Shown here: one piece after another, positions 6,712 through 53,430 of the stretch
Position numbering within the stretch: position 1 is the first letter of the stretch
How the letters are laid out: each line of letters opens with the position of its first letter
Source of the DNA: Candidatus Poribacteria bacterium
Lineage (GTDB): Bacteria > Poribacteria > WGA-4E > WGA-3G
NCBI GenBank assembly: GCA_007571305.1
Contig: RKRR01000149.1
Span: 4,631-68,630, forward strand
DNA: 64,000 nucleotides
Direction of reading: 5' to 3'
Notes under the pieces: generated by a model
Told to the model about the DNA's origin: nothing
Databases searched by the model: none
The model's input: the letters and a program-made list of their open reading frames with translations, nothing else
Position numbers and translations under genes: made by a program

Positions 6712-8622
6712 TTACCGATATGTCTTAAATCCAGCCTCTACACGGGTTTTACGATAGAGGTTTAGCACATCACCCTCAACGCGTGCAGTCACCTGTCTGC
6801 CATCGCTGAAGGTCACCTGAAATTGTGTGTCGGAGTCCTGTGAGATTGTCTCTGTCGTCGGCAACGGGATATCCTTCTGCTTCGCCCACTCTTGAATCAA
6901 CTTCGTGAGAGAATTCGCGTCACTCGGTGCAGATTTTGCGTCCTTCAATTCGATACTGAATGCAGGCATGCTCTTCTTGACGTAGTTAAACCAACGCGCC
7001 GTCCGTAGGAACGGCACGAGAGCCTGCAGTGCTTCAGCAGTACCAATTCGGCTTAGTGCCTCTGAAGAGAAGCCACGCACATACGCCGACTCGCTCATCA
7101 ATGCCTCTCGTAACGCGGGTATCGCCTCAGCGGCATCCGGTCCAATACGGGTTAGTGCCTGCGCTGCAAAGAACGCTAAATCTGTATCTCCGCGATTTTC
7201 CAATACCTCTACCAACGCGGGGACGGTTTTCGATACCGGCACTTTAATCATACCCAACGCCGAGGTTGCATGTCGACGCACCTCTTCCGATTCATCCGTT
7301 AATAACGCAATAAGCCCATCAATTGCTTCTGCTGCGACCGGACCCATTTCGCCTAATGCATACGCCGCTGAAGCGCGCACGTTCTCGCGTTCGTCCTCCA
7401 AAGCCGTTATGAGTGCGGACGCAGTCTCCGACACGCCTGTTGCCGCGAGACCGTGTGCGGCATCACAGATATGGAGAATCGGTTCCATATCAAACGCCTC
7501 CGTCTCTGAATCCAGTGCGTCAGCGAGGGGTTCAACCGCGGGTTTCCCAATCGCACCGAGAGCATAGATGGCATTCCTCCGTACAGGTTCATAACTATCT
7601 TCAAGTGCATCTACGAGTGCGGGGACAGCCTTGGCACCATCCGTGCGCATAAAACCCAATTCGTTCGCGGCTTTCATACGGACGTTCGGATCATCTGCTT
7701 TCAATGCCGCAACCGCTGATGCTACATCTATCGCGGTATCTGGACGGTCAGTTTCATAGAGATCGGTTTTCCCGTACATCCAATTCCAGATATACGTCCA
7801 GAGGATTTCTGCATCGTAAGGAACGTGATTGACTTCAGGGGGTTGCCACATAGAGGTGTTACTGTTCCAGGAAGGCACCGTCGGTTGCTCGGTACGCATA
7901 AAGACGAATTTCATGCCGTAGCGGTTCAGAGGAACATAATTCTGTAGGAACGAATGCACCATATCGAAGTGCATAATCCACACCGTGCCGAGTTCGCCGG
8001 ACATGGGGACCAAATTGCGATTCAGGAAATTATCGGAAAGCAGTCGCGTTCCGTTTCCACCCTTTGCATGTATTTCATGCCGGTGACGCTCGCCATCCAG
8101 CATAAATTCTCGGATGTATTGCGTCCCTGGGATAATACAGGTCGGTCCTTGTTCGGCAAGGCAAGGCTGCGGATAATAGAAGAGAATCGCCCAACGAGGC
8201 GTTCGGTGCCGCGGCCGTTTTCCACCGGCGTGTCCATCTTTATGGAGCGGCATCATCAATCGTTCTTCGCCGCTTTCTTTGTTGCTCGGTGTGCTTCCGG
8301 AAAAATTGGGATGGCAATGTCGATGCGGGTGCATGACATATCCGTTTCCCAAAATGCTGGTGAGCGCGCCGCTCACCTCTGGTGACTCCAAAACTACCTG
8401 AAGTTCCGGGACCAAGGGTAAAATGTTATTGAGAGGGTTGTGCTGCCTATCGCCTCGGAAATCTGTCGCCCCGGCAAAGAGTTCGTCGGTTTTGTCGTAG
8501 ATAATTTCGTGGATATGCGTCGGCACATCGGCGGTGACGTTGACATACCCGTTCACAATAAAATGGCGAATCTGTTCATCATTGAGAAGTTGATTTTTAA
8601 CTGGACCTTGCGGATAAGTCAT
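6712..8622 (-). CDS. phytanoyl-CoA dioxygenase (PhyH)-like domain fused to HEAT (PBS-lyase type) repeats
   Basis: The N-terminal half has a 2OG-Fe(II)/PhyH-like pattern (LNDEQIRHFIVNGYV..., HPH/HKDGH histidines). The central part holds about 6 tandem HEAT units (VPALVDALEDSYEPVRRNAIYALGAIG, ...VRRHATSALGMI, ...YVRGFSSEALSRIG). Confidence 0.7.
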   Translation of the reverse strand: MTYPQGPVKNQLLNDEQIRHFIVNGYVNVTADVPTHIHEIIYDKTDELFAGATDFRGDRQHNPLNNILPLVPELQVVLESPEVSGALTSILGNGYVMHPHRHCHPNFSGSTPSNKESGEERLMMPLHKDGHAGGKRPRHRTPRWAILFYYPQPCLAEQGPTCIIPGTQYIREFMLDGERHRHEIHAKGGNGTRLLSDNFLNRNLVPMSGELGTVWIMHFDMVHSFLQNYVPLNRYGMKFVFMRTEQPTVPSWNSNTSMWQPPEVNHVPYDAEILWTYIWNWMYGKTDLYETDRPDTAIDVASAVAALKADDPNVRMKAANELGFMRTDGAKAVPALVDALEDSYEPVRRNAIYALGAIGKPAVEPLADALDSETEAFDMEPILHICDAAHGLAATGVSETASALITALEDERENVRASAAYALGEMGPVAAEAIDGLIALLTDESEEVRRHATSALGMIKVPVSKTVPALVEVLENRGDTDLAFFAAQALTRIGPDAAEAIPALREALMSESAYVRGFSSEALSRIGTAEALQALVPFLRTARWFNYVKKSMPAFSIELKDAKSAPSDANSLTKLIQEWAKQKDIPLPTTETISQDSDTQFQVTFSDGRQVTARVEGDVLNLYRKTRVEAGFKTYR

Positions 8623-8837: not shown

Positions 8838-9803
8838 CTAATACCATGCCGCTTTATTGACTACGTTCTGTAACGGCGCGCCTTCTGCGAACCGACGAGC
8901 ATTTTCCAAGAGAATCTCAAATCGTCGTGCCGGAAGGTTTTCTGCATCTTTCACAGCGATGTGTGGCGTTATTAACACATTCGGCAGATGCCACAATGGA
9001 CTTTCAGCAGGTAAAGGTTCAATCTCAAATACATCCAAACCGCACCCCGCAATGATTCCCTGTTCAAGTGCGTCAATAAGGTCGGCGAGTTTTGTCGTCT
9101 TACCGCGTCCGATGTTAATGAAGTAAGCCGTCCGTTTCATCAGTGCAAAACGGTCTTTGTGCCACATTCCTTCGGTTTCAGGTGTGTGTGGTGTCGTAGT
9201 TATCACAAAATCGGCGAGTGGAAGAAGCGTGTCGAGTTCTGTGCATTCGTGTTTCTCTACAAAAGGCACTTCATACTCCCACCTTGGATCAACACCGATC
9301 ACTTTCATCCCGAACTGATTACAGAGTCGCGCGGTTTCATGCCCGATACCACCAACGCCGACGATCAATGCTGTCGCTTGTGCGAGGTCGATGTATCCAC
9401 TTTTCCGAGCGTCTTTCTCCCAAACGCCTTCACGTTGTGCATCCATATAATAGGGTAGTCCACGAGAAAGCGCGAGGACGAACATCATGATATGTTGCGA
9501 AATATGGTCGTTGTAAATGCCACGTGGGTTACAGGCGACGAGGGGATGCTCAATCAACGCCGGATAATAATAACCAGGGAAGGGCCCCGCAGCGGGGTTC
9601 TGTAGCCATCGCACGTTTTTCGCCAACGGTAGTTGTTCGGGCGACACCCAGCCGTAGACAGCATCTGCATCGGGAAGGTGCTCTTCGACTGCTCCATCTG
9701 TTTCCGGTAAAACGACGGTGTATGCAGGCAATTCGTTTTGGAGGCGTTCAGCCCATTCGCGTAATTCCGCGTCCTGGGGTGGCATAATTACAAGTTTTGG
9801 CAT
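8838..9803 (-). CDS. D-isomer-specific 2-hydroxyacid dehydrogenase
   Basis: GVGGIGHETARL is an NAD-binding GxGxxG motif. The family pattern ...FINIGRGKTT...LDVFEIEPLP...PNVLITPHIA is also present. Confidence 0.85.
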   Translation of the reverse strand: MPKLVIMPPQDAELREWAERLQNELPAYTVVLPETDGAVEEHLPDADAVYGWVSPEQLPLAKNVRWLQNPAAGPFPGYYYPALIEHPLVACNPRGIYNDHISQHIMMFVLALSRGLPYYMDAQREGVWEKDARKSGYIDLAQATALIVGVGGIGHETARLCNQFGMKVIGVDPRWEYEVPFVEKHECTELDTLLPLADFVITTTPHTPETEGMWHKDRFALMKRTAYFINIGRGKTTKLADLIDALEQGIIAGCGLDVFEIEPLPAESPLWHLPNVLITPHIAVKDAENLPARRFEILLENARRFAEGAPLQNVVNKAAWY

Positions 9804-9885
9804 GGATTTTATTCCTCTCTGTAGTTTTCGCCTATTTTAGCACAAGGACATCAGAAGATCAAGACCTAATTATATTAAAAAACGC

Positions 9886-9913
9886 TTGAATACCCTCAGA
9901 ATTTCGGTATAAT
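9886..9913 (+). promoter_or_regulatory. candidate sigma70 promoter for the helicase-nuclease pair
   Basis: TTGAAT (9886-9891), 16-nt spacer, TATAAT (9908-9913), about 50 nt upstream of the first ATG of the helicase gene. Confidence 0.4.
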
Positions 9914-9965
9914 AGAGGCATTCGTAATTAGTGGAAAACTCCAATTTAAAGCGTTGAGCAGTATT

Positions 9966-11390
9966 ATGTCCACGCCACTCAAAATCAACTTTGACAAAGG
10001 CACCCTCATCTTACAGAACGTCCCAGAACCCCTCCGCACACAATTGCCAGACACTCGCTGGGATAAAAGGACTCTCACCTTCCGGGCACCCGCTTACCGC
10101 TACCGGCATATTATCTCGCAGTTACGCGCACATGGTATTTTGTATGAGGACACAGCACGGCAATTTTCAGTCGAACCCTTTACATACCAGCAAACAATGT
10201 CCCCCTACCCTTATCAGACCGAGGCGATAGACGCATGGCACGCCAACGGCAAACGTGGTGTGGTGACCCTCCCTACCGGTGCTGGTAAAACCTTTATCGC
10301 GATTCTGCTTATCGCTGATACGCAGCGTCCCACACTTGTCCATGTGCCGACAATAGATTTGATGCACCAATGGCATACCGTATTGAAGGAACACTTCGGA
10401 CAAGAGGTAGGACTCTACGGCGGCGGTTATCATGAACTTCGAGACCTGACTGTGACGACGTATCAATCCGCTGTTATGCATGCACCATACTACGGAAATC
10501 GGTTTGGTTTCGCCATTTTCGACGAATGCCACCACCTACCGGGCGATCAGTATCAGTATGCAGCAATTAGCAGCATCGCCCCGTTTCGATTGGGGTTGAC
10601 AGCGACACCCGAACGTGTTGATGGGAAAGAAAGTCGACTCTATGCCCTCGTCGGCGAACCCTGTTATGAAGTAGAGGTACAAGAACTCTCTGGAAAAACG
10701 CTCTCTGAGTATCGGGTTGTCACCATTGCTGTTGAAATGGAAGATACAGAACGGATTCGGTACGAAGAAGCCCGTCGCATTTATTTAAACTTCCTCAAAC
10801 AGGAGCGCATTAATATGGGAACACCGCGAGGCTGGCATACATTCCTCTGGAAAGCCTCGCTAACAGATGAAGGACGCGCCGCTCTTAAAGGGTATCTCGC
10901 CCAGAAGCAAATCAGTTTTGCTTCAACGACAAAACAGGAATGGGTGTGGAAACTTATTCAGAGGCACAGCGGGGATCGGATCCTCATCTTTACACAGGAC
11001 AACGATACAGCGTATCAACTCGGCACGCGTTTCTTGCTGCCAGTGCTAACGCATCAGACGAAACCCAAGGAGCGGAATGATTTTTTGAACAAGTTCCGCG
11101 ATGGCACCTATTCCATCCTCGTCACTTCTAAAGTCCTAAATGAAGGTGTAGATGTCCCAGAAGCGAATGTTGGTATCATCGTCTCTGGAAGCGGAAGTGT
11201 CCGGGAACATGTTCAACGATTAGGACGCATCCTCCGCAAGCGGGAAGGCAAACAGGCAGTGCTCTACGAACTTATCTCCAAACAGACCGGTGAACACTTC
11301 GTTAACAAGCGGCGCAGACAACACCACGCCTACCAATTTTCTAACAGGAGACCAAATTTTTACCGCACATCGTTTCACAAGGGTTCCTGA
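9966..11390 (+). CDS. XPB/ERCC3(Ssl2)-like SF2 DNA helicase
   Basis: Damage-recognition-like N-terminus (KINFDKGTLILQNVP...WDKRTLTFRAPAYRY). Helicase motifs: I TLPTGAGKT, II FDECHH, III LGLTATPER, V VLNEGVDVPEANVGIIVSG, VI QRLGRILR. I used the first ATG at 9966; the listed ORF starts at a TTG at 9954. Confidence 0.8.
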   Translation: MSTPLKINFDKGTLILQNVPEPLRTQLPDTRWDKRTLTFRAPAYRYRHIISQLRAHGILYEDTARQFSVEPFTYQQTMSPYPYQTEAIDAWHANGKRGVVTLPTGAGKTFIAILLIADTQRPTLVHVPTIDLMHQWHTVLKEHFGQEVGLYGGGYHELRDLTVTTYQSAVMHAPYYGNRFGFAIFDECHHLPGDQYQYAAISSIAPFRLGLTATPERVDGKESRLYALVGEPCYEVEVQELSGKTLSEYRVVTIAVEMEDTERIRYEEARRIYLNFLKQERINMGTPRGWHTFLWKASLTDEGRAALKGYLAQKQISFASTTKQEWVWKLIQRHSGDRILIFTQDNDTAYQLGTRFLLPVLTHQTKPKERNDFLNKFRDGTYSILVTSKVLNEGVDVPEANVGIIVSGSGSVREHVQRLGRILRKREGKQAVLYELISKQTGEHFVNKRRRQHHAYQFSNRRPNFYRTSFHKGS

Positions 11391-48003: not shown

Positions 48004-48555
48004 TTAACTCACAAATTTCTCCAAAATAGGATGATCCAAAACGGATGCGACTTCTGTCCAGGCCTGTTGGCTATTCTCAACTGAAAGGTCTGGGGTGAAT
48101 CCGAAATCAAGATAAACTTTGATCGCTGCCATACGTCCGGTTGACGTACCGAGAAAACAGCATTCGTGGGATTGCTTCAGACGCTCCATCGCTACGGTCA
48201 TCATCGGTTTGGAAAGCCCATGTCCTTGATAGTCAGGATGAATCACGACCCAGTGGATCTGGCCCCACACTTCTCCATCTATATCTTGCCACCATGCCGT
48301 GATTGTGCCTATTTCCTCACCTGTGTCTGTCGTTAGGTAAAAACTTCTATTCTCCATTACTGAAAGATGGTGTTTAAACTCGCGATCAAAAAGTCCGTCG
48401 TCAATGTCAATGTAAGGTTCTGCGGCTTTCAGAATCCGCGTCCAGATATGTCCCTCATTCTGACGATAATTTCGGATTGCAAATCCGTCTGGAATCGGGA
48501 ATTGCGGGATATTCTCCATGTTCTCGCGAATCATTCTGACGCTATAGTTCTTCAT
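48004..48555 (-). CDS. GNAT-family N-acetyltransferase
   Basis: ...IHWVVIHPDYQGHGLSKPMMTVAMERL... is the acetyl-CoA-binding motif A (Q/RxxGxG/A). Confidence 0.8.
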   Translation of the reverse strand: MKNYSVRMIRENMENIPQFPIPDGFAIRNYRQNEGHIWTRILKAAEPYIDIDDGLFDREFKHHLSVMENRSFYLTTDTGEEIGTITAWWQDIDGEVWGQIHWVVIHPDYQGHGLSKPMMTVAMERLKQSHECCFLGTSTGRMAAIKVYLDFGFTPDLSVENSQQAWTEVASVLDHPILEKFVS

Positions 48556-48796
48556 ATTGGGCGTGAGGCTGCGGAAATTGAAGTTCAGAAAATTCGATTT
48601 TCACTTAGCACAATATAACACACGTTAAAAAAAAGGACAAAGGTATTTTGAAAGGAGCGTAAATATTTTGTCACTTGTCTGAATCGTGGATTAGACAGAT
48701 GATGCGGATTTTTAGATATTTGTTATCCGAAATCGATTCGGGATCTGGTGGTTTTCCCAGAGAATTGAAGGGATCCGACTTTTAACACAGAAGGAC

Positions 48797-48825
48797 TTGA
48801 CATTATAAAAAAAATAAGATATACT
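48797..48825 (+). promoter_or_regulatory. near-consensus sigma70 promoter of the two-gene cassette
   Basis: TTGACA (48797-802), exactly 17 nt of A/T-rich spacer, TATACT (48820-25). It lies about 50 nt upstream of the first gene. Confidence 0.6.
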
Positions 48826-48877
48826 TTATATTTGTTAATATTTATTATATCCAGATATGTATCCCAGGGGAGTGTCT

Positions 48878-49804
48878 ATGCTTATTCGTCAGAAGGTTAT
48901 ATTGTCATTAATTGACCAAATGGGTAATCAAAGCCCTAGTGGTAATCACGGAAAGGTCTCTCGTTTACAGTTGGTTAAATGGGCATTTTTGCTTGAAAAC
49001 GAAAGAAAAATGAAAACCTTTTACCAATTCGTCCCCTATCACTATGGACCATTTTCGTTCACACTTTATCATGAATTAGAGGGGCTGATTCGGAACAGTT
49101 ATATTATAGAGTCCCCTAAAGATAGCATTCAACGAAACATTGATATTGCAGTACCTCCAATCACCCCTGTACTTAAAAATGAAATTAATGATTTTTCAAG
49201 AAAGTACCACTCGCTATCAATGGAAGAGTTAATAGATTTTGTATATTCTCGTTATCCATGGTTTACAATTAATGCTAAAAAGTTAGGCAGCCGAAAAGAC
49301 AAGCGCCCTATAGGTGAATGCGCTGTTTATACAGCTGGCTACGAAGGTTTACATATTGATGGGTTTCTGAATATTCTCTTAAAAGCAGGTATTCAGCAAG
49401 TCATTGATGTTCGATGCAATCCAGTCTCAAGGCGTTACGGTTTCCATAAATCCACATTGTCACGGCTATGCAAAGGATTGGAAATCAAATATAGACATGT
49501 GCCCGAAGTGGGCATTCCCTCAGAATCGAGAGCCAACCTTCGCCAACCATCTGATTATATCAAACTTTTCCAAAACTACAAAAAGAAAGTATTAACTGTT
49601 CAACAAGAGGTTATAAAAAGGATATCGAGGTGGGTAGCATCCCAACCATCAGTCTTAGTATGTATGGAGGCAGATCCTCATTGCTGTCACCGTTCTCACC
49701 TTGCAGAGGAAATCAAAAACCTTACGAAACTTGATATCCATCACTTAAGGAAAGATACATGCAAACAGCCTATACCAAAACCAAAATTCTCATTACCGTC
49801 ATGA
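48878..49804 (+). CDS. fusion protein: Panacea/DUF4065 (SocA/GepA)-like N-terminal domain + DUF488 C-terminal domain
   Basis: The ATG at 48878 follows GGGGAG with a 5-nt spacing; the listed ORF starts at 48857. N-terminal half: SRLQLVKWAFLLE...FVPYHYGPFSFTLYHEL...SLSMEELIDFVYSRYPWF. C-terminal half: VYTAGYEGLHIDGFLNILLKAGIQQVIDVRCNPVSRRYGFHK..L...GI.Y.HVPE.G...VLVCMEADPHCCHRSHLA, which is the DUF488 hallmark. Confidence 0.65.
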   Translation: MLIRQKVILSLIDQMGNQSPSGNHGKVSRLQLVKWAFLLENERKMKTFYQFVPYHYGPFSFTLYHELEGLIRNSYIIESPKDSIQRNIDIAVPPITPVLKNEINDFSRKYHSLSMEELIDFVYSRYPWFTINAKKLGSRKDKRPIGECAVYTAGYEGLHIDGFLNILLKAGIQQVIDVRCNPVSRRYGFHKSTLSRLCKGLEIKYRHVPEVGIPSESRANLRQPSDYIKLFQNYKKKVLTVQQEVIKRISRWVASQPSVLVCMEADPHCCHRSHLAEEIKNLTKLDIHHLRKDTCKQPIPKPKFSLPS

Positions 49805-50583
49805 CATATCCACATCCATCACAAGAGTATCAAGAATTAGTCTGTACGGCAGGCGTTACTGAAGATGGAAAATGGGTACGTCTTTATCCAATAGATTACC
49901 GTTATCGTCCATCTCATCAAAAATTTCGGAAATATCAGTGGATTGAGGTAGAACTTGCTGAGCAGGGATCAGAAAACGATCAAAGGAAAGAAAGTCACAG
50001 GCCTTCCCTCGATGCCATAAGGCTCCTGGGCGAACCATTGAAGCCCAAAAACAATTGGCAAGATCGGCGTAAAATTATAGATAAACTGCCTCTGCACACG
50101 GTAAAAGAATTAAAAGATCTCTACGATGAAGATAAAACTTCCCTTGGTGTTGTTCGTCCAACCCGCGTACTTGATTTGAAAATTGAAGAATTAGATCCAG
50201 ATTGGAAGCCTGCACAGCAGCAAGCACTTAGTCAGTTAAAACTCTTTGATCCACAACCCAAACACCTAGCTAAGATTCCTTTCAAATTTAGTTACGTTTT
50301 TGAATGTGAGGATAGCAGTAAGCCACACAATGCAATGATTACAGATTGGGAACTTGGCGTATTGTACCTGAAGGAAGTTGATCGATTGGGAAGTAAACAG
50401 CAAGCTGCTGAAAGTGTAAAAAATAAATTTCTTAATGAACTCTGCCATCCGAGTAAGGATACTCTATTTTTTATGGGAACGGCATTCCCTTACAATACAT
50501 GGATTGTAATTGGAGTTTTCTGGCCACCTAAAGCACTTCCAAAAACCTCGCCAGAAAACTTACAGGTAGAAATCGATTTCTGA
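49759..50583 (+). CDS. hypothetical protein, no recognisable family (partner of the Panacea-DUF488 gene)
   Basis: 274-aa ORF overlapping the upstream gene by 46 nt. The alternative ATG at 49801 forms an ATGA overlap with the upstream stop. Conserved-looking N-terminus KILITVMTYPHPSQEYQELVCTAGVTEDGKWVRLYPIDYRY and a later FKFSYVFECEDSSKPHNAMITDWELGVLY. Confidence 0.6.
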   Translation: MQTAYTKTKILITVMTYPHPSQEYQELVCTAGVTEDGKWVRLYPIDYRYRPSHQKFRKYQWIEVELAEQGSENDQRKESHRPSLDAIRLLGEPLKPKNNWQDRRKIIDKLPLHTVKELKDLYDEDKTSLGVVRPTRVLDLKIEELDPDWKPAQQQALSQLKLFDPQPKHLAKIPFKFSYVFECEDSSKPHNAMITDWELGVLYLKEVDRLGSKQQAAESVKNKFLNELCHPSKDTLFFMGTAFPYNTWIVIGVFWPPKALPKTSPENLQVEIDF

Positions 50584-50756
50584 TAGGTGCGATTTAGTCT
50601 AAAATTTCTACTAATACGCTAACTGTTGCGAAAACTTGGCATTATCAGAATTTGTGATAGCATGTACCGTGTTTTGGAGCAATTTACTTATGCCTACAGA
50701 AAATAAATATCATTTTTCTAGACAATAAGTAGTTTTCGGATAGGTTAAATTGGAGT

Positions 50757-52991
50757 TCACGATATTTTGCTCAAAAGTTGGTCGAATTTTTGCTGGCTTT
50801 GCTTTACCCGTAACCTCAGATTTTCCAGACGTTTTTGCTCCTGAAATATATCGGACAATTCCTCTGGACTCGGCCTTGGAATTAGCACATTTAGAATTTG
50901 TTGTTTCGTAAAATTTTCGCGCCCGACCAAATCTGTAGGAATAAGTTGTCTTGGAAACTCTCTACGGAGTGCTTTTATTAGATATTCAGGTGGAACTCTA
51001 TCCTCTCGAATTGTGGCTACGATTTGTGAAGTACAGATATATTCACGATTTGCTATTCCAAACAAGCCATTTCCATTGTTTGTATGTAGCGTGCCGATAA
51101 TTAAATCCCCCTCATTTGCTATTACTTTCTCCGCGTTAATATTTCTTCCTAAACGCAAATTTCCTTTTACACAAATGAGATTAGATTGACTGTTAAGCCC
51201 TGGTTCTGCATACAAGCTATCAGGATTAAGCATAGATTTGCTGTTTTTGATCGTAATGAGTTCCTCTAATTTCCAAACATTTTCGGGTGTTCCAAACATT
51301 TGTTGAAATTCAAGGAAACTTCCACCACTACGATACTGCATTCTAACTGCGTTAGGTGCTTCATATACCCGGTTTTCTGATATGTATTCTAACAGATCAC
51401 ACATATCATTTTCACGGACAGGTTCTCGCTTTTTATCTTGTGACATGCCATCAGATTTTAAATGAATATATGTGAATTCGTCGGTTTGCTGCACATGTAC
51501 ATTATCAATAATGATAATTGCAGTCTGAGCAGTGGTATAAAAAACGAAAGTCTTGCTAGGCAATCGTATACATGCACGTATCCTACCTTTTCTTGCGATA
51601 TAATCTCTAATATGTTTATAGTCAGGTGAATGACAGAATGTAAGCGGGAGAATGATGGCTGCTTTCCCGCCTCTCTTTAGAGATTCAATACATTTGACAA
51701 CACAGAGACTATTGTAATCTGTTATCTGTATTCCACTTGCCTGAAGGAACGGAAGAATTTGTTGACGGTTAATCGTGCCTTTCAGATTGAATGGGATATT
51801 TGTGATAACTTTGTCGTATGCATGCTGTTCTAAAGTATCAAAACTATCTGCCTGCTGTATATTACTTTGCCCATCTCCCAAAATTATCATATTCATTTTG
51901 GCAAGACTGGAAGCACCACCACTAATATCGTTTCCATACAGGATTTCGTTCTGTAATTCGTGCAACTTGTCCTTGAAATCTGGTTTTTCAGAATCAAGTC
52001 CCATTCTTATGTGCTGATACATAGAGATAAGCATTCCACCAGTTCCACAAAAAGGATCAAGAATTTTTTCACCCGTTTGTGGTGCCAACAAAGCAGCCAT
52101 CATAGCGGTAATATGGCGCGGTGTGAAATGTTGACCAAGTTCGCTTTTCGCACCTGCGTTATATTCAGCAAGAAAATACTCAAAAGCTTCGCCTTTTATG
52201 TCTATTGCAGAATTTGTGAAATTAATCGGTGTGAGGCTTGAAATGATCTGCTCAAGAGTAGACGGATTATTCAGTTGTGTTGCCGAGAAAATATCACCGT
52301 AAGTGTCTCGGTAGTTTTGGTGAATATCTTTGTATTCACTTATCAAATTCTGTCCAGTGATAGACAAAAGACGCTGCCAATTTTCACGAGCAGATATATT
52401 TCCTCTTTCACTCATAATTTTAATAAAAAGTAACGCACAGAATTCTCTAAGTCGTTCCATTCCTGCATCCATGCCATCAGATCGCATAAAACCCGATACT
52501 TTTTCAAACAACTTTATGATATTTTTAACACTGTTAATCGCTTGCCCTTGTGCAGCTGCTGGAGCAGCTACTAATTCACACATAAGAGTAGGCGAAGGAA
52601 TATAGTCAATAGGGTAGTTATTGAGGGATAATTCGCTTCCATCGGCATGTTGAGAGCGAACTTGTATGCTATCTGAAGCAAATACTAACATAGGCGGCTC
52701 ATCACTATCACAAGCGATCCTTGCATAGTCAAGTGCTTGCTTAAGAGCATCGTCCAATTTGATGCCTTGAAATCGTTTTGCCTCTAAAAACGCCATGGGT
52801 GTTGCAGAATTCGGTGCATAGAAATGGTAGTCAGGGACTTTACCCGCCCGATTCAGCCGTTCACGCATTATAATGTTACGAACATCATGTTCATAGCCAA
52901 CGGATGGATCAGAAATCTGATAGTTATATGTTTTAAACCCAGCGGATTCAATCATTGCATTTATACGAACTCGTGCGTATGCTTCATTCAT
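50757..52991 (-). CDS. single-chain type IIG-like restriction-modification enzyme (PD-(D/E)xK nuclease + N6-adenine methyltransferase + HsdS-like target-recognition domain)
   Basis: N-terminus HsdR_N/Mrr-like (RVRINAMIESAGF...VPDYHFY...AFLEAKR). Methylase motif I ILDPFCGTGGMLI, preceded by GQHFTPRHI. Motif IV VITNIPFN. The C-terminal roughly 230 aa look like one HsdS half (WKLEELITIKNSKS...GDLIIGT...) and end in a coiled coil (EQKRLENLRLRVKQSQQKFDQLLSKI). Confidence 0.75.
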   Translation of the reverse strand: MNEAYARVRINAMIESAGFKTYNYQISDPSVGYEHDVRNIIMRERLNRAGKVPDYHFYAPNSATPMAFLEAKRFQGIKLDDALKQALDYARIACDSDEPPMLVFASDSIQVRSQHADGSELSLNNYPIDYIPSPTLMCELVAAPAAAQGQAINSVKNIIKLFEKVSGFMRSDGMDAGMERLREFCALLFIKIMSERGNISARENWQRLLSITGQNLISEYKDIHQNYRDTYGDIFSATQLNNPSTLEQIISSLTPINFTNSAIDIKGEAFEYFLAEYNAGAKSELGQHFTPRHITAMMAALLAPQTGEKILDPFCGTGGMLISMYQHIRMGLDSEKPDFKDKLHELQNEILYGNDISGGASSLAKMNMIILGDGQSNIQQADSFDTLEQHAYDKVITNIPFNLKGTINRQQILPFLQASGIQITDYNSLCVVKCIESLKRGGKAAIILPLTFCHSPDYKHIRDYIARKGRIRACIRLPSKTFVFYTTAQTAIIIIDNVHVQQTDEFTYIHLKSDGMSQDKKREPVRENDMCDLLEYISENRVYEAPNAVRMQYRSGGSFLEFQQMFGTPENVWKLEELITIKNSKSMLNPDSLYAEPGLNSQSNLICVKGNLRLGRNINAEKVIANEGDLIIGTLHTNNGNGLFGIANREYICTSQIVATIREDRVPPEYLIKALRREFPRQLIPTDLVGRENFTKQQILNVLIPRPSPEELSDIFQEQKRLENLRLRVKQSQQKFDQLLSKIS

Positions 52992-53101
52992 TAACCACTC
53001 CTTATTGGCATACTCTCAATTACTATTTCAATTTTTAAGTACAGTAGCACCCCTCTCATTTAGCCCACAAGTTTATCAGGACTAATAGGCACCTGAACAA
53101 G

Positions 53102-53141
53102 AACACAAAAAGCCTGCAACGCGTACAAAGCGCGTGCAGGC
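53102..53141 (-). terminator. rho-independent terminator (minus strand) between miaA and the R-M gene
   Basis: Minus-strand stem gcctgcacgcg / cgcgttgcaggc (one bulged base), 7-nt loop, followed by tttttgtgtt. Confidence 0.6.
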
Positions 53142-53212
53142 GAAACACAGCAGCACGGACGAAATTGCTAAGGCTGCATTGTGAAGTAAACCTACTTAAT
53201 ATGTGTTGAGTA

Positions 53213-53222
53213 GGGGGGGGGG
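53213..53222. repeat. homopolymeric G10 (C10 on minus strand) tract
   Basis: Ten consecutive G, 222 nt upstream of the R-M gene start, in an otherwise mixed-composition spacer. Confidence 0.9.
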
Positions 53223-53353
53223 AATCGCGATTAGCAGAGAGATAACAGCACTGAAACGCCAAGCGTGTCCAACTGTTTCAAACGCGTGTTGGTTAAAAAC
53301 GGTGTTAAATGTGTCTACAGCTCGGTCCTTCATAGTTGTAGTTTATCTCGCCG

Positions 53354-53430
53354 ATTGTAGCATAGCCTGTTAGGCTGTGCTTCTGCGCCGCAAACGAATA
53401 CGTTTACGATGCAAAACATAGGAACCTCAT
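53354..53430 (-). repeat. intergenic repeat fragment with a compensated variant of the hairpin core
   Basis: gtagcatagcctgttaggctgtgc at 53357-53380. The two differences from consensus (aacct>agcct and aggtt>aggct) keep the stem complementary. Confidence 0.7.

Follow-up and report, generated by a model that had tools for sequence, protein, structure and literature searches.

Do two overlapping genes from a Candidatus Poribacteria genome represent a new toxin-antitoxin or phage defence pair, or do they belong to a module that has already been catalogued? This question is raised by the genes located at positions 48797 to 50583 of the window analysed here, that is, the complete stretch of 64,000 nucleotides (nt) taken from contig RKRR01000149.1 of the assembly GCA_007571305.1; all coordinates are positions of this window, unless a locus label such as L001 or L081 is given. 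An original prediction, made from the nucleotide sequence, had described gene 1 as a fusion of a Panacea (DUF4065)-like domain with a DUF488 domain and gene 2 as its unrecognisable partner, and had regarded the pair as a candidate new toxin-antitoxin (TA) or defence system. According to the profile matches, the gene pair is a copy of the two-gene module PDC-M19, a candidate that is already part of the PADLOC collection. The protein deduced from gene 1 matched the profile PDC-M19A (PDLC04505) with an E-value of 2.3e-82, residues 8-295 being aligned to positions 1-292 of 294, and the protein deduced from gene 2 matched PDC-M19B (PDLC04508) with an E-value of 6.2e-86, residues 7-259 being aligned to positions 3-263 of 269. 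The order of the genes, A followed by B on one strand, likewise matches the PADLOC cassette FAM_02799>>FAM_02993.

The PDC systems go back to a curation of genes that lie inside loci of the BREX, DISARM or type I restriction-modification (R-M) type, which resulted in 145 untested phage defence candidates (Payne et al. 2024, bioRxiv 10.1101/2024.01.29.577857), and the supplementary table of that study lists the cassette FAM_02799>>FAM_02993 as CAS_00089 with a count of 174 and the entry 'Assign as candidate PDC-M19'. The claim that the pair is a new candidate was thus not borne out, since it is already contained in PADLOC-DB, and the window copy, as one more member of PDC-M19, is modest as a discovery. 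A full-text literature search for the name 'PDC-M19' returned no paper, and the full-text literature on DUF488 provided no description of the present system among the matches listed. The window copy shares with the catalogued module the full-length matches to the A and B profiles, the gene order and the strand, with no structural difference, whereas its surroundings differ in that it adjoins a single fused methyltransferase gene and is not embedded in a multi-gene BREX, DISARM or type I system. What is added here are the prediction of a tandem OB fold for gene 2, the partnership of such dual-OB proteins with DUF488, DUF4326 or ASCH proteins, and the resemblance of the N-terminal half of gene 1 to that domain of DarG which silences DarT. 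With these results, the search for the function of DUF488 becomes more focused, as does the question of whether the module serves host defence or the counter-defence of mobile elements.

With respect to gene structure, the calls of open reading frames (ORFs) confirmed two co-directional and overlapping genes. Gene 1 (PDC-M19A) specifies 308 amino acids and extends from 48878 to 49804 on the forward strand, with the stop codon TGA at 49802-49804, and gene 2 (PDC-M19B), encoding the predicted tandem OB-fold protein of 274 amino acids, extends from 49759 to 50583 on the same strand. The maximal ORF of gene 1 comprises positions 48857 to 49804 (+) and would yield 315 amino acids by use of an alternative ATG at 48857. 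The start of gene 1 is most likely at 48878 rather than at 48857, because the majority of the homologues are 308 amino acids in length with the N-terminus MLIRQK and because the ATG at 48878 is preceded by the sequence GGGGAG at a distance of 5 nt. For gene 2, the original prediction had left the choice between ATG 49759, which gives a 46-nt overlap, and ATG 49801, which gives an ATGA junction. Both codons are present in the sequence, and the first was retained and the second discarded, since the motif 'TKTKvLITVMTYPHPS' is conserved at the N-termini of gene 2 homologues 5' of the second ATG, the alignment to the PDC-M19B profile begins at residue 7, and an AGGA motif is located 7 nt ahead of ATG 49759. 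Judged by these features, the real junction of the two genes is the 46-nt overlap of the reading frames at 49759 to 49804 (+), a putative site of translational coupling.

The near-consensus promoter sequence that had been noted upstream of the pair is present: a putative sigma-70-like site with the sequence TTGACA-17-TATACT is located at 48797 to 48825 (+) and matches the consensus at 11 of 12 positions. It is the top-scoring promoter-like site within the interval 48400-53400, in which the overall number of such sites (17 observed versus 15.4 +/- 4.2 expected) is at chance level. An intrinsic terminator was not found downstream of gene 2. Additionally, a 15-nt inverted repeat with 93% complementarity flanks the two-gene cassette (48724-48738 and 50571-50585), of which one arm precedes the -35 hexamer by 59 nt, whereas the other extends across the stop codon of gene 2; roughly estimated, a repeat of this quality would arise about once by chance in 5.4 kb.

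Database searches detected 1188 relatives of gene 1 and, by means of a word-indexed search, 2288 relatives of gene 2. The gene 2 family comprises 2453 clusters at 50% identity, and the best 150 relatives of gene 2 are all stand-alone proteins, mostly of about 260-280 amino acids. Synteny was analysed in a sample of 80 genome loci, the closest of which is poribacterial (81% identity); 78 of them are informative, as two are located on truncated contigs. The fused gene 1 is located directly upstream of gene 2 and on the same strand in 72 of the 80 loci (72 of the 78 informative ones), and these 80 loci represent at least seven phyla, namely Poribacteria, Chloroflexota, Cyanobacteria, Acidobacteriota, Planctomycetota, Bacillota and Myxococcota. 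Overlapping reading frames are present at 54 of the 72 junctions; an overlap of 4 nt is the most frequent (33 loci), and 13 loci show one of 34-46 nt. The translational coupling and the conserved pairing that the original prediction had anticipated were therefore recovered across genomes, and the homologues of the two genes do occur together elsewhere. The distribution over at least seven phyla is patchy at 60-80% identity, which indicates, as far as can be judged from sequence comparison, horizontal transfer. In a scan of IMG/VR viral contigs with a narrower gene 2 alignment, the fused gene 1 was found upstream of gene 2 in 12 of 14 contigs.

Some individual loci deviate from this arrangement. 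The locus of the closest poribacterial relative (L001) carries an extra stand-alone DUF488 gene (17-388, +) just upstream of the fused gene 1; the respective protein matches PADLOC PDC-M45B with an E-value of 3e-41, so that this locus contains two DUF488 domains. In Chloroflexi bacterium CFX3 (L067, 9947-10807) and on an IMG/VR contig (L090, 6001-6809), the homologue of gene 2 is interrupted and occupies two ORFs or frames, and these copies are possibly pseudogenes or the result of sequencing frameshifts.

The original prediction could not name a family for gene 2, and in agreement with this, no family was assigned by the Pfam and NCBIfam libraries; searches with the gene 2 and gene 1 profiles against the sequences of the PDB provided nothing significant. 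The AlphaFold2 (AF2) model of the gene 2 protein (pLDDT 84, pTM 0.83) contains strands at residues 5-89 and 129-254 that form two beta-barrel-like units. The Foldseek search of the PDB with this model returned RPA of Pyrococcus (8aaj_A, E 2e-4), CTC1/CST (6w6w_A), RPA70 (4gop_C), Teb1 and POT1, the E-values for the RPA, CST, Teb1 and RPA70 matches being in the range of 2e-4 to 2e-3, and the search of the BFVD returned the baculovirus protein LEF-3 with an E-value of 4.5e-5 and a probability of 1.0. The Foldseek probabilities of the PDB and BFVD matches taken together range from 0.85 to 1.0. Gene 2 is accordingly predicted to encode a tandem OB-fold protein that resembles single-stranded DNA (ssDNA) binders, and from this fold we infer binding of ssDNA. 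The protein has in common with RPA, CST, Teb1, LEF-3 and the DuOB family the presence of two OB-like barrels per chain, and such proteins constitute its top structural matches in the PDB and the BFVD, whereas it differs from them by the lack of significant sequence similarity and by low TM-scores. Membership in the Pfam family DuOB (PF22557, 'dual OB-containing domain') was considered and rejected, as the window protein and 50 close homologues gave no match; 4 of 124 members of the broad gene 2 family matched DuOB weakly, with E-values of at least 0.0019 and below the cut-off. A recognisable toxin-type or catalytic domain was not detected in gene 2 by Pfam, NCBIfam or Foldseek. Homologues share with the window proteins a median identity of 65% in gene 2, compared with 51% in the DUF488 domain and 37% in the N-terminal domain, and by this comparison gene 2 is the most constrained and slowest-evolving component of the module.

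The assignment of the C-terminal half of gene 1 to DUF488 was fully confirmed. The domain comprises approximately amino acids 146-292 (49313 to 49753, +) and matches PF04343 with an E-value of 5.6e-25 and 88.8 bits, above the gathering threshold of 22.2. All 52 aligned gene 1 homologues match DUF488 (PF04343), and 42 of the 52 also match the model of DUF488-N3a, the 'active' subclade (active DUF488-N3). The residues D177, R179, R185, H190, C262, E264, C270, H271 and R272 are invariant across the 52 sequences, and among them C262, E264, C270, H271 and R272 constitute a putative active-site motif C..E....CHR that is conserved in the gene 1 family and that is presumably the family-wide motif of DUF488. 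Burroughs and Aravind are said to have grouped DUF4326 with DUF488 in the rhodanese-phosphatase superfamily in 2023. The AF2 model of gene 1 (pLDDT 89.5, pTM 0.87) was likewise applied to a Foldseek search, in which the top PDB match of the DUF488 half was the phosphatase SsoPTP of the protein tyrosine phosphatase (PTP) fold (7mpc; E 1.2e-2, probability 0.94, TM-score 0.23-0.40). This match agrees with a published study in which the related DUF4326 was placed in the rhodanese-phosphatase superfamily (PMC9503650). For DUF4326, the same study proposed an activity on terminal phosphates of the ribose in ADP-ribose (ADPr), and fusions of DUF4326 to Macro or NADAR domains were reported in viruses (PMC9503650). 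Gene 1 shares with the DUF488 clade the domain itself and the conserved Cys...Cys-His-Arg motif, the Foldseek match to a PTP-fold phosphatase points to the same clade, and relatives of gene 2 are also partnered by DUF4326.

The N-terminal half of gene 1, comprising approximately amino acids 1-140 (48878 to 49297, +), shows similarity to both the C-terminal domain of DarG and the Panacea domain. Its designation as Panacea/DUF4065 in the original prediction stands as a weak similarity and falls short of the Pfam threshold: PF13274 (SocA_Panacea) matched gene 1 with an E-value of 0.06 and 14.7 bits, below the cut-off of 25.7, and it was detected at E-values of up to 0.01 in 9 of the 52 gene 1 homologues, with 4e-4 as the best value. 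Two gene 1 homologues are labelled 'uncharacterized phage-associated protein' by the Joint Genome Institute (JGI), which we take to be the name of COG3600/GepA and thus equivalent to DUF4065.

The DarTG system consists of the ssDNA ADP-ribosyltransferase toxin DarT and the macrodomain antitoxin DarG. The PADLOC model of DarG matched the N-terminal domain of gene 1 with an E-value of 1.8e-5, and the NCBIfam model of DarG (NF048014) matched gene 1 with an E-value of 3.3e-4 at model positions 172-239, that is, in the part following the macrodomain, with a score of 20 bits compared with a cut-off of 250. Both DarG models were aligned solely to the N-terminal region of gene 1, and a Macro domain was not detected in gene 1 by Pfam. 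Moreover, the Foldseek search with the N-terminal half returned the DarG chains 7yk3_D and 7yk3_B of a DarTG complex with probabilities of 0.98-0.99 (0.99 for 7yk3_D). By sequence profile and structural model, the N-terminal domain of gene 1 resembles the C-terminal domain of DarG and is better described in this way than as Panacea, as a lead and not as an assignment of membership. The C-terminal domain of DarG is reported to silence DarT by mimicry of ssDNA (Deep et al. 2023). The N-terminal domain of gene 1 is basic, with a median isoelectric point (pI) of 9.4. It also matched, at positions 408-545 and with an E-value of 6e-10, the PADLOC model PDLC03184, a 554-position model of a type I specificity subunit, which suggests, at the level of sequence profiles, that some HsdS proteins carry a DarG/Panacea-like domain as a C-terminal fusion.

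A comparison of distant relatives revealed which parts of the module are exchanged. Relatives of gene 2 at about 30% identity are encoded by temperate phages of Gordonia and by 23 plasmids. On plasmids of Pseudomonas, Rhizobium, Burkholderia, Arthrobacter and Pseudochrobactrum, gene 2 and a short gene for DUF488 alone are convergent and abut or overlap tail to tail, and on a Streptomyces plasmid, the convergent partner is an XRE-type helix-turn-helix (HTH) domain fused to DUF488. The latter protein of the Streptomyces canus plasmid (L101, 3786-4475, -; HTH_31, E 2e-13) has an antitoxin-like or autoregulator-like appearance, unlike the DarG-like fusion of the window. A Fischerella plasmid carries the DUF488 gene downstream of the gene 2 relative on the same strand, and in the Gordonia phage Nymphadora (NC_031061.1) the pair is flanked by the genes for the immunity repressor and for the integrase. 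The two remaining contigs of the 14 from IMG/VR encode a DUF488 protein without a detectable N-terminal domain in one case and a DUF4326 protein downstream of gene 2 in the other. The plasmid pSOG2 of Sulfolobus also carries a relative of gene 2. In six loci of the Chloroflexota (L027, L047, L049, L058, L067 and L076), gene 1 is replaced by a gene encoding an ASCH-domain protein (PF04266, E 1.4e-5).

Since distant relatives keep DUF488, DUF4326 or ASCH without the Panacea-like domain, the invariant core deduced from these genomes is a dual-OB protein together with a DUF488/DUF4326-type enzyme or an ASCH protein, and not a Panacea antitoxin together with a toxin; by the same comparison, it is the PDC-M19 clade alone that has gained the DarG/Panacea-like domain. 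The family is widespread, occurring in at least seven phyla, on plasmids and in phages, and its interest lies in the reaction that DUF488 may catalyse and in what the dual-OB partner may do.

The partner genes showed further details. The protein gp42 of Nymphadora (L081, 4831-5280, -), which is annotated as 'HipA toxin', is a DUF488 protein (PF04343, E 1.2e-29) whose gene is convergent with that of the gene 2 homologue gp43, and this label is, on account of the domain match, probably a mis-annotation common to seven related Gordonia phage records. The 'immunity repressor' gp44 of the Gordonia phage was considered as a homologue of gene 1 and rejected in favour of gp42 as the real partner (BLASTP E-value of 6.9; HTH domain). 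On the IMG/VR contig L091, a gene for a DUF4326 protein (6855-7211, +; PF14216, E 1.7e-21) takes the place of DUF488 downstream of the gene 2 relative; DUF4326 and DUF488 are, as we assume, sister families in the rhodanese-phosphatase superfamily. The ASCH proteins of the Chloroflexota (approximately 9590-10190 in the loci) comprise about 170-190 amino acids, and the tail of the respective gene overlaps the start of gene 2 in another frame by about 110-170 nt, which is unusually long.

With about even confidence, we regard the pair as a cassette for mobile conflict (anti-phage) that follows a logic similar to that of toxin-antitoxin systems, with proposed roles for both proteins, any single step of which is to be considered much less certain than the whole. 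A conflict role is plausible in view of the full-length PDC-M19 profiles, the linkage of the genes, the core pairing, the predicted folds and the mobile context. In such a cassette, gene 2 would most likely bind ssDNA or DNA ends, for instance intermediates of replication or entry, and may act as sensor or effector, with gene 1 as its dedicated partner. The DUF488 domain of gene 1, as a probable member of the cysteine-dependent rhodanese/PTP-phosphatase superfamily, would most likely act as a phosphoesterase or transferase for phosphate or sugar-phosphate, with the ends of nucleic acids or adducts of the ADP-ribose type as its likely substrates. The N-terminal domain, like the part of DarG that docks to and silences DarT, would most likely tether gene 1 to gene 2 and restrain the latter, and the single promoter together with the overlapping frames might set the ratio of the two proteins. 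Whereas the gene structure, the domain identities, the predicted folds, the synteny, the exchange of partners and the membership in PADLOC are shown by the data, binding of ssDNA, the chemistry of DUF488, a contact of the two proteins and any phage phenotype are inferred.

A more specific version of this proposal appears rather unlikely as a whole, namely a DarTG-like, ssDNA-directed conflict system in which the dual-OB effector seizes ssDNA of phage or host, the DarG-like domain restrains the effector until infection, and DUF488 removes or sets a mark, phosphate or of the ADP-ribose type, at the ends of DNA. If it were true, the DUF488, DUF4326 and ASCH partners would represent interchangeable 'eraser' modules for one ssDNA-binding core, and the DUF488 domain of gene 1 would be the first member of the family with an assigned function. 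The module shares with DarTG a two-part partner protein that consists of an enzyme domain and a putative docking domain like the C-terminal part of DarG, a second protein that is predicted to act on ssDNA, and a mobile, defence-linked occurrence. It differs from DarTG in that gene 1 contains DUF488 instead of a macrodomain, gene 2 has a predicted OB fold and not the ADP-ribosyltransferase (ART) fold, and the gene order is reversed.

Several observations weigh against a conflict cassette of this kind. Payne et al. 2024 themselves called their 145 candidates untested. The conservation of gene 2, with its median identity of 65%, exceeds the expectation for a defence sensor or a toxin, and TA operons do not usually show the convergent orientation that the genes have in distant relatives. 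The TM-scores of the gene 2 matches are low (0.24-0.37), and for this reason the structural comparison supports the OB-type architecture alone. When a profile built from the N-terminal domain alone was compared with the DarG sequence 7yk3_B of Mycobacterium tuberculosis, the E-value of 0.84 was insignificant, and the idea that this domain is an acidic mimic of ssDNA is not supported by its pI; because of this sequence match and the basic charge, the resemblance to DarG is treated as a lead. Finally, in a survey of 145 immediate neighbours across the 80 loci, defence genes account for about 10-15%, a minority that is given here as a raw fraction.

The main rival explanation, which we consider somewhat unlikely, assumes a cooperative module for the processing of DNA ends or ssDNA that serves a mobile element, and not host immunity, by helping it to become established, to be repaired or to counter a DNA-modifying defence such as DarT. 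As an example, the dual-OB protein would coat entering or replicating ssDNA, and DUF488 would strip ADP-ribose-phosphate or 3'-phosphate blocks. This explanation draws on the presence of the pair on conjugative plasmids and in temperate phages, on the genes for RecT, a PD-(D/E)XK nuclease and a LexA-like regulator beside the pair of Pseudochrobactrum, on the very high conservation of gene 2, which fits a universal substrate such as DNA, and on the resemblance of the N-terminal domain of gene 1 to the DarT-binding part of DarG. The proposed action of DUF4326 on ADPr-linked phosphates and its viral fusions to Macro or NADAR point in the same direction, as do the orphan DarG-like enzymes that phages carry against DarT (PMC11825919). 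However, PDC-M19 was recovered through its embedding in BREX, DISARM or R-M loci of the host, the 80 genome loci are mostly chromosomal with integrases among 3 of the 145 immediate neighbours, and the AT-rich island that harbours the pair in the window contains no tRNA gene, no convincing flanking direct repeat and no integrase among the ORFs scanned there.

A classical type II TA system of the Panacea (PanA/PanT) type, in which gene 2 is a new toxin that is neutralised by binding of the Panacea-like domain, with DUF488 as an accessory, is decidedly unlikely. The antitoxin-first order, the overlapping genes and the strong promoter would agree with it, as would the weak Panacea matches and the 'uncharacterized phage-associated protein' label of two homologues, presumably the COG3600/GepA name. 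Gene 1 shares with the Panacea antitoxins (PF13274, SocA/PanA) a helical N-terminal domain with weak profile similarity and an unrelated partner in the adjacent gene, and with type II TA systems in general the presence of two small, presumably co-transcribed genes in conserved pairing. Panacea domains are known to be paired with many unrelated toxins (PMC8832971). In contrast to these antitoxins, the match of gene 1 is below the Pfam cut-off, and the domain is fused to an enzyme and dispensable in distant relatives of gene 2, which keep DUF488, DUF4326 or ASCH partners, often on the opposite strand; moreover, gene 2 is the slowest-evolving part and is devoid of a recognisable toxin or catalytic domain. 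The idea of a defence or TA-like role remains a reasonable part of the original prediction, whereas the simple scheme of a Panacea antitoxin that neutralises a new toxin is weakened by the exchange of partners in distant relatives. It is highly improbable that the genes are a housekeeping or niche metabolic pair that is located beside an R-M gene by chance and outside genetic conflict. The strong purifying selection on gene 2 and the often ordinary metabolic genes in the neighbourhood of the pair in other genomes would be in line with such a role, for which a species-tree-like phylogeny and a fixed chromosomal position would be expected. The data show the opposite, with a patchy distribution that indicates horizontal transfer, copies on plasmids, in phages and on IMG/VR contigs, a location in an AT-rich island and an embedding in defence systems in the PADLOC study.

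The genomic setting is in agreement with the original prediction, which had noted an AT-rich patch beside an R-M gene: the GC content of the stretch at approximately 48.5-52.5 kb is 0.37-0.40 compared with 0.47-0.54 in the flanks, and the neighbouring gene encodes an N6_Mtase protein. This N6-adenine DNA methyltransferase of 744 amino acids (50757 to 52991, -) matched PF02384 (N6_Mtase) with an E-value of 2.3e-42, the PADLOC model MTase_I with 2.3e-58 and the PDB entry of HsdM (2okc) with 1.5e-24. It is given as genomic context; as a third component of the module it was rejected, homologous methyltransferases being present in only 6 of the 80 related loci. The protein contains an HsdM-like gamma-class N6-adenine core at residues 260-540, an N-terminal extension of about 160 amino acids, in which a PD...EAK motif ('VPDYHFY...AFLEAKRF') is located, and about 200 additional amino acids at the C-terminus. 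From these features it looks like a single-chain, type IIG-like R-M enzyme and not like a lone methyltransferase.

Among the 145 immediate neighbours, the PADLOC scan most often detected mad2 (methyltransferase-type), namely 10 times, followed by type I methyltransferase models with about 5 matches each and type IIG with 4, and the Pfam scan detected N6_Mtase 5 times and SWI2/SNF2, ResIII, phage integrase and HNH_5 3 times each. This neighbour profile is consistent with mobile defence islands. On a Pseudomonas plasmid, the pair adjoins a HEPN/Toprim gene. In the window, the AT-rich island is bounded by a GNAT acetyltransferase gene and by miaA/mnmA-like genes. It extends from approximately 48600 to 53300 (GC content of 0.37-0.40 versus about 0.49) and contains just the PDC-M19 pair and the methyltransferase gene, and the same arrangement is present on a 3.9-kb metagenome contig from JGI (sample 3300007748).

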